This document shows, piece after piece, positions 10,645-11,826 of a DNA stretch of 64,000 bases. A model generated the notes under the pieces. The model was not told where the DNA came from. It saw nothing but the letters and a program-made list of their open reading frames with translations, and ran no database searches. Position 1 is the stretch's first letter. Each line of letters starts with the position of its first letter. Location of the stretch: the NCBI RefSeq assembly GCF_045037415.1, contig NZ_CP173438.1; one strand, 5' to 3'. Origin of the DNA: Escherichia coli. Lineage in GTDB: Bacteria > Pseudomonadota > Gammaproteobacteria > Enterobacterales > Enterobacteriaceae. Both the position numbers and the translations under genes were made by a program.

Positions 10645-11826
10645 TCAAGAACGGCGTTTGGTTGCGGAGTCCATCCATACTGCCAGCAACAGAATCGCAC
10701 CTTTAACGATATACTGCCAGAAGGTCGGTACATCCATCATACTCATGCCGTTATCCAGCGAAGCCATGATGAATGCCCCCATTACCGCTCCGGCCACGCT
10801 CCCGACGCCGCCTGCCAGACTGGTGCCGCCAATCACACATGCTGCAATTGCGTCCAGTTCGGCGATATTTCCCGCAGAAGGTGAACCAGCGCCGAGTCGA
10901 GAACTGAGGATTAATCCGGCGATGGCTACCATTAATCCGTTAATAGCGAACACGGCAAGTTTGGTGCGTTCAACGTTAATCCCGGAGAGACGTGCCGCTT
11001 CCAGATTGCCGCCGATGGCATAAATGCGCCGTCCAAATGCCGTCCGCGTTGCCATAAACATGCCGCCCAATAACAGTAACGTTAGCAGCAGAACAGGAGT
11101 GGGAACACCACGGTAATCATTCAACAGCCAGATTGCGCCTAATACGATGATAGCGGTTAAAGCCTGGCGACCGACTACTGCGGTAGAGGCCGGAGACTGC
11201 AAACCCAAAGCCTGACGGCGCATTCTTCCGCGCCATTGCCAGCCAACAAAAGCCATTAAGCCAAGCGCGCCAATGATGAAGCCGGTGCTGGCAGGTAGAT
11301 AGCTTTGCCCAATTTGTGACATCGCGGCGCTGGTGGGGGAAACAGTCGTGCCGTTGGTGATGCCAATGAGTATGCCACGAAATGCCAACATGCCCGCGAG
11401 GGTGACAATAAATGAAGGGACTTTGCGGTACGCGACCCACCATCCGTTCCAGGCTCCGAGAAGCAGTCCCAGAACCAACGTCACAATGATGGTAAGTGGC
11501 AAAGGCCAGCCTAGCCAGACGTCACAAATCGCCGCGACGCCACCTAACAGCCCCATCATTGAGCCGACGGAAAGGTCGATTTCAGCAGAAATTATGACGA
11601 ACACCATTCCTACCGCGAGGATGCCGGTAATTGCGGTTTGGCGTAACAGGTTGGAGACGTTACGGGCGCTTAAGTAGGCACCATCGGTGGTCCAGGTAAA
11701 GAACAGCATGATTGCGATGATAGCTGCAATCATCACGAAGACCTGCAAATTCAGTGATTTCAGCCCGGAAAAGCCACCGGATGTCGGTACGGCTAATTTC
11801 ACTTCAGACGGATTGCTTTTCGACAT
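10645..11826 (-). CDS. xylH: Xylose ABC transporter permease, 393 aa
   Basis: Complete polytopic membrane ORF recognised as XylH; start overlaps the xylG 3' end. Confidence 0.9.

Follow-up and report, generated by a model that had tools for sequence, protein, structure and literature searches.

Overlapping gene pairs in a 64-kb segment of the Escherichia coli chromosome: known operon layout, two conserved long overlaps and the frameshift site of IS150

Overlaps of four nucleotides between neighbouring genes (-4) represent the commonest spacing in E. coli according to a published genome-wide survey, and the genome-wide share of E. coli gene pairs spaced between -8 and +6 nt was published to be 24%. 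Among five native ATGA pairs of E. coli examined by Huber et al. (2019), translational coupling was observed in four, while the fifth one (bioBF) was initiated independently. Tian & Salis (2015) obtained a reinitiation coefficient of 0.022 at a distance of -4 and of 0.0072 at distances between 0 and +25, with a change of -0.0004 per nt beyond -10, and recommended overlaps of at least 25 nt for the removal of reinitiation coupling. In their review, Brown and Wade (2025) described that a longer overlap cuts coupling faster than added spacing does, none being left at -25; according to the same review, published results on reinitiation distance differ between constructs, and the figures originate from synthetic reporter operons. 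An effect of the opposite direction is known for the small ORF baxL: in a preprint, Weaver et al. (2019) found that a stop codon placed in baxL raised expression downstream of it.

Eight overlaps between adjacent genes, distributed over several operons of a 64-kb window (the whole stretch of DNA that was analysed), had previously been read as indicating translational coupling. However, an overlap alone is no proof of coupling, least of all an overlap of about 20 nt. Very probably, the eight junctions are ordinary, already annotated co-directional overlaps with correctly annotated start codons, belonging to three mechanistic classes. The first class would comprise five ATGA junctions featuring the commonest prokaryotic arrangement. 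In the second class, represented by xylG/xylH and bcsZ/bcsC, the overlap has presumably been fixed in evolution, the downstream ATG and its ribosome-binding site being embedded in a C-terminal tail of the upstream gene that is probably dispensable. The third class, consisting of insJ/insK, would be no coupling junction but a site of programmed -1 frameshifting.

Gene content of the window and its overlapping pairs

The window represents an E. coli chromosome segment covering the region yiaM–xyl–glyQS–IS150–dpp–bcs–dctA. Its gene order is yiaM-yiaL-yiaK, yiaJ, avtA, malS, bax, xylR-xylH-xylG-xylF, xylAB, glyQS, IS150, hokA and a cspA-type gene, followed by bisC, yiaC-tag, dppABCDF, three ldr/rdl copies, bcsGFE, bcsRQABZC, hmsP (pdeK) and dctA. 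The xyl region was recovered at an identity of at least 95% in all but one of 5,419 matching complete E. coli genomes (5,426 searched). The genome of strain THO-003 shares 99.994% identity with the first 50 kb of the window and is identical over the last 19 kb. Because of this near-identity, the RefSeq/PGAP annotation of THO-003 can be transferred base for base from approximately position 1260 onwards, and each of the transferred coding sequences was found to be an intact ORF in the window. Close to that position, a DUF4862-family gene (595-1516, minus strand) carries an extra A at about 1253 in comparison to THO-003. This 1-nt insertion splits it into one ORF at 1238-1516 and another at 595-1257, and is the sole reason for their 20-nt overlap (1238..1257). 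Either the gene is a pseudogene in this strain or the extra base stems from a sequencing error.

The ORF list, the annotated coordinates and the junction sequences agree in placing each of the eight overlaps where the sequence-only reading had put it, and the RefSeq annotation matches. Furthermore, the K-12 gene-pair distance table in the supplement of Huber et al. (2023) contains seven of the eight distances, namely -23 for xylG/xylH, -19 for bcsZ/bcsC, and -4 for bcsE/F, bcsF/G, dppD/F, tag/yiaC and insJ/K, bcsQ/bcsA being absent there. Because the same distances are given in this table, the overlaps are considered as real and already on record. Within the window, 7 out of 36 same-strand neighbour pairs (19%) are spaced between -8 and +6 nt, and the frequency of overlaps is nothing out of the ordinary. 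The overlaps, which had also been described as ordinary operon architecture, are indeed annotated, contained in a published catalogue and typical of E. coli. They are real, conserved, routine and already known elements of operon layout and, as a textbook arrangement present in the reference annotation and, except for bcsQ/bcsA, in a published table, they matter little in themselves.

One further overlap was missing from the earlier list. The small ORF baxL (8431..8457, plus strand; eight codons, MIKSDQET*), which is not part of the PGAP annotation, overlaps the ATG of bax (8457..8459) by 1 nt in the sequence TGATG, and baxL/bax is listed at -1 in the K-12 table of Huber et al. (2023). Judged from the effect of the stop codon, baxL translation seems to act negatively on bax; a stop/start overlap can therefore go along with repression as well as with positive coupling.

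Convergent overlaps were detected for bisC and yiaC (32 nt, 31494-31525) and for hokA and an oppositely oriented 23-codon ORF (24 nt, 25114-25137). TTG start codons are annotated for bisC (29192) and hmsP/pdeK (60765). The region 45119-46487 harbours three tandem modules, each consisting of an Ldr toxin gene and an RdlD antisense RNA, which are mutually 96-97% identical.

The long overlaps xylG/xylH and bcsZ/bcsC

The genes xylG (11804..13345) and xylH (10645..11826), both located on the minus strand, overlap by 23 nt (11804..11826), with the xylH ATG at 11826..11824 and the xylG TGA at 11806..11804. The overlap spans the last seven codons of xylG and the first eight codons of xylH. [quoted passage not shown]

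To describe the conservation of this junction, 80 loci originating from different enterobacterial species and encoding XylH proteins 86-100% identical to the query were compared, the genera including Escherichia, Enterobacter, Citrobacter, Klebsiella, Kluyvera, Buttiauxella, Cedecea and Siccibacter. An ATG was present at the position homologous to the xylH start in all 80 genomes, and the overlap measured 23 nt in 78 of them. In the remaining two, both belonging to Buttiauxella (L019 and L024; about 2001-2014), a C-to-T exchange, silent for XylH (AGC to AGT), introduces a TAA into xylG three codons ahead of the usual stop, reducing the overlap to 14 nt. Since XylG ends three residues earlier in these two genomes, its last three residues are probably dispensable. 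The motif AGGAG at -13..-9 before the ATG was invariant among 74 distinct sequences, although it includes a third codon position of xylG, and a column-by-column alignment showed xylH nucleotides +1..+8 to be invariant in both frames, xylG third positions included. By comparison, the variable columns upstream of the ATG are mostly xylG third-codon positions. The fixation of AGGAG and of nucleotides +1..+8 in spite of these third positions points to a second constraint, namely the ribosome-binding site and the start codon. At the protein level, the XylH residues MSK..SE were kept across the 80 genomes. Of the 513 residues of XylG, the TIGR02633 profile covers none beyond residue 502, and XylH is matched by its closest permease profile only from residue 27 onwards; judged from these profile boundaries, only the terminal tails of the two proteins seem to be dual-coded, and the overlap would be cheap.

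The second long overlap, located on the plus strand, comprises 19 nt (57210..57228) between bcsZ (56122..57228) and bcsC (57210..60683), the bcsC ATG starting at 57210 and the bcsZ TAA occupying 57226..57228. No earlier start is possible in the bcsC frame than the ATG at 57210, which opens a typical signal peptide. BcsC homologues with identities between 52% and 79%, including those of Salmonella and Cronobacter, all start at the same Met and feature the same signal-peptide pattern. Gene calls of five other enterobacterial loci, Salmonella and Cronobacter among them, likewise contain the 19-nt overlap, and both the bcsC ATG and the bcsZ TAA were invariant in the DNA alignment of bcsZ/bcsC loci.

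Conservation of this kind also bears on the question of whether the overlaps are products of annotation, as gene callers favour the longest ORF and translation could in truth start only behind the stop codons of the upstream genes. In line with such an artefact, no earlier start is possible in the open frames of xylH, bcsC, dppF, bcsG, yiaC and insK, a GTG (codon 9 of xylH) closely follows the stop of xylG, and the 20-nt same-strand overlap within the split DUF4862 gene is really frameshift-made. However, the N-terminal xylH residues, the ATG and the AGGAG motif are conserved in 80 genomes, whereas the GTG at codon 9 is not: it lacks a ribosome-binding site, and further genera carry ATC, CTG, GCG or other codons at its position. 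Likewise, the signal peptide of every BcsC homologue starts from the annotated Met, its charged N-region would be lost with a later start, and the downstream candidate starts possess weaker ribosome-binding sites or none. An artefact of annotation is thus extremely improbable. The overlaps had moreover been taken as support for the chosen start codons. These starts are right, but their support is derived from other evidence than the overlaps themselves, i.e., from the invariance of the xylH ATG and AGGAG, from the Met of the BcsC signal peptide and from the ribosome-binding sites of the seven cellular pairs, for which the annotated start shows the strongest predicted pairing with the 16S rRNA 3' end among the in-frame candidates. 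For quality control, this means that the start codons of xylH and bcsC are sound.

Regarding translation, xylG/xylH (-23) and bcsZ/bcsC (-19) fall outside the spacing at which termination-reinitiation is efficient. Our own extrapolation from the values of Tian & Salis (2015) yielded predicted reinitiation coefficients of about 0.002 at -23 and 0.0036 at -19, corresponding to 9% and 16% of the ATGA value, respectively. A start region sequestered in RNA structure, as expected under the unfolding model of coupling, was found neither at xylH nor at the six other cellular junctions in local folds. Folding of 120 nt around the xylH start gave no inhibitory structure, the region being less stably folded than shuffled controls (z = +1.18), and an alignment of 28 species yielded a consensus of only -4.8 kcal/mol without compensatory changes, i.e., no conserved pairing at this start. 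The other six cellular junctions reached z values for local structure between -0.58 and +2.1. The literature search retrieved no relevant publication on the xylG/xylH overlap, and xylH, bcsC, dppF, yiaC, bcsA and bcsG are all absent from the TRAINSPOTTER supplements. A XylG-XylH fusion by frameshifting at A_AAG, which is present within the overlap in the xylG frame, was also considered and rejected: a -1 shift enters the third frame and encounters a stop within a few codons, xylH being in the +1 frame.

Because GAGGAG is placed 8 nt before an exposed ATG and the start region is free of structure, xylH seems suited to independent initiation, which, as far as these folding and pairing models go, appears more likely than coupling. 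Most likely, xylH would be translated mainly through independent binding of free ribosomes at the accessible, strong GAGGAG-ATG site, and back-scanning reinitiation would contribute a minor share only. A native -23 junction equipped with a strong ribosome-binding site could still show appreciable reinitiation.

The strict conservation of both long overlaps could, beyond the conservation of both protein termini, result from selection on the arrangement itself. One such possibility is that long overlaps are kept to limit or tune downstream translation, elongating ribosomes covering the start codon so that output remains below that of the upstream gene or independent of it. The overlap length is indeed almost invariant across genera, overlaps of at least 25 nt are advised for removing reinitiation coupling in synthetic operons, and baxL provides an example within the window of an overlapping upstream ORF apparently lowering downstream expression. 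Yet the embedding of the xylG TGA in the conserved xylH codons TCT GAA offers a simpler account of the conservation, and Buttiauxella tolerates the 14-nt version. A tuning role is therefore regarded as quite improbable, and we would hardly expect the 23-nt and 19-nt overlaps to have been selected as insulating or ratio-setting devices in which reinitiation is suppressed, the start is occluded and output is independent of, or inverse to, that of the upstream gene.

The four-nucleotide junctions and IS150

Six overlaps of 4 nt had been classified as ATGA-type. Five of them read ATGA, whereas insJ/insK reads GTGA. The ATGA junctions on the plus strand are dppD/dppF (42550..42553), featuring the strong ribosome-binding site GGGAGG with -10.3 kcal/mol, and bcsQ/bcsA (51147..51150), preceded by GGGAG with -6.9 kcal/mol; a GTG located upstream and in frame with bcsA (51099) has a poor ribosome-binding site. 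On the minus strand, bcsF/bcsG (48166..48169) and tag/yiaC (31931..31934) possess weak ribosome-binding sites, the start region of bcsF/bcsG being less structured than 200 out of 200 shuffles (z = +2.1). The bcsE/bcsF junction (48354..48357, minus strand) contains a second, adjacent ATG. Since bcsF begins with ATGATG (48351-48357, minus strand), a start at -4 or at -1 (TGATG) is equally possible from the sequence.

The gene bcsQ (50398-51150, plus strand) is an intact 250-codon gene in this strain. In K-12, it is presumably a pseudogene, which fits the missing bcsQ/bcsA entry in the K-12 table. With bcsQ intact, the strain may possess a functional cellulose operon.

The stop-start spacing of the five ATGA pairs is within the range of efficient reinitiation, extending from about -4 to a few nt, and no coupling tests on these five pairs were found in the literature. 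At such junctions, a ribosome ending the upstream gene would sit on the next start codon and could reinitiate there, probably assisted to a variable degree by the ribosome-binding site inside the upstream gene. By analogy with the pairs analysed elsewhere, coupling is plausible for dppD/F, bcsQ/A, bcsE/F, bcsF/G and tag/yiaC.

The sixth 4-nt overlap, insJ/insK (24033..24036, plus strand), is part of a complete IS150 copy (23468..24910, plus strand; 1443 bp), the TG...CA ends of which were read directly from the sequence. The element is flanked by a 3-bp target duplication (AAG at 23465-23467 and 24911-24913); terminal repeats were not detected by the repeat finder. The GTGA junction is not preceded by a ribosome-binding site and falls into the loop region of a hairpin (24010..24057, plus strand), whose 10-bp stem is formed by GCCUUAGCUC (24010-24019) and GAGCUAAGGC (24048-24057). 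This hairpin begins 6 nt after the slippery heptamer A_AAA_AAG (23997..24003, plus strand), which is in register with the insJ frame (cuA AAA AAG) and sits thirty nt upstream of the GTGA. With a folding energy of -23.8 kcal/mol and z = -2.95 (none of 200 shuffles folding as well), it was the only structure at any junction to beat all 200 shuffles. The insK frame is open from 23979, and a -1 shift yields an InsJ-InsK fusion of 456 aa with a single terminal stop. This fusion matched the IS3 transposase profile NF033516 over positions 1-369 of 369 and across the shift site with 414.7 bits (cut-off 160). In agreement, PGAP annotates a single joined CDS as 'IS3-like element IS150 family transposase, programmed frameshift'.

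Heptamer, hairpin, open frame, profile match of the fusion and PGAP annotation together identify insJ/insK as a programmed -1 frameshift site, and its earlier interpretation as a coupling overlap is rejected. The transposase is probably produced as an InsJ-InsK fusion by -1 frameshifting at A_AAA_AAG, with the downstream hairpin acting as stimulator. Voegele and colleagues are said to have observed high-level frameshifting in IS150 in 1991, including the frameshift product. Consequently for annotation, insJ/insK is best entered as a single transposase gene with a frameshift instead of two genes coupled to each other.

At the left end of the element, the Rfam model 'sok antitoxin' (RF01794) matched over its full length with 89 bits at 23391-23544 (plus strand), extending 77 nt into IS150; apparently, part of the IS150 sequence has been incorporated into the model of this family. 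The gene hokA (24985) is separated from this sok-type RNA by IS150.

Taken to its full extent, the coupling interpretation would regard all eight overlaps as devices that let a ribosome, having completed the upstream gene, reinitiate on its downstream neighbour. It could draw on the strong enrichment of ATGA overlaps in E. coli, on the four coupled pairs among the five native ATGA pairs tested, and on the fact that xylG/xylH and dppD/dppF each encode subunits of one transporter, overlaps being enriched among subunits of complexes. On the other hand, insJ/insK is a frameshift site with a GTG that is not preceded by a ribosome-binding site, reinitiation falls with overlap length and is absent at -25, and the start region of xylH is open with a strong ribosome-binding site. 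Furthermore, one of the five tested ATGA pairs, bioBF, was initiated independently, and the increase of bax expression by the stop codon in baxL suggests repression by baxL translation. Coupling at all eight junctions is therefore considered unlikely. The preferred interpretation, three classes of ordinary overlaps, keeps from the coupling claim the five ATGA pairs, for which it is plausible by analogy; it does not extend to insJ/insK, being a frameshift site, or to the two long overlaps, as published reinitiation drops with length.

Comparison with known systems

The closest counterparts of the five ATGA junctions are the coupled NTGA pairs with -4 spacing (Huber et al. 2019, 2023; Brown & Wade 2025), with which they share the layout and a ribosome-binding site internal to the upstream gene. 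In contrast to these pairs, bcsF/bcsG and tag/yiaC possess weak ribosome-binding sites.

The insJ/insK junction corresponds to the -1 frameshifting of the IS3 family (IS150, IS911 and IS3), featuring the same heptamer, a hairpin 6 nt downstream of it, and orfA and orfB in the 0 and -1 frames. It does not differ from that system, the element being IS150 itself with the GTGA located downstream of the shift site.

Among regulatory upstream small ORFs, baxL-bax (Weaver et al. 2019) is present in the window with its canonical -1 TGATG overlap; its effect is opposite to positive coupling, as the baxL stop raised bax expression.

Finally, xylG/xylH and bcsZ/bcsC resemble the long overlaps (-11 to -25 nt) constructed by Tian & Salis (2015), in that the downstream gene likewise starts inside the upstream gene and in the range of declining reinitiation. 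However, they are native junctions conserved across Enterobacteriaceae, and the ribosome-binding site of xylH is strong, whereas those of the synthetic constructs were deliberately weak.
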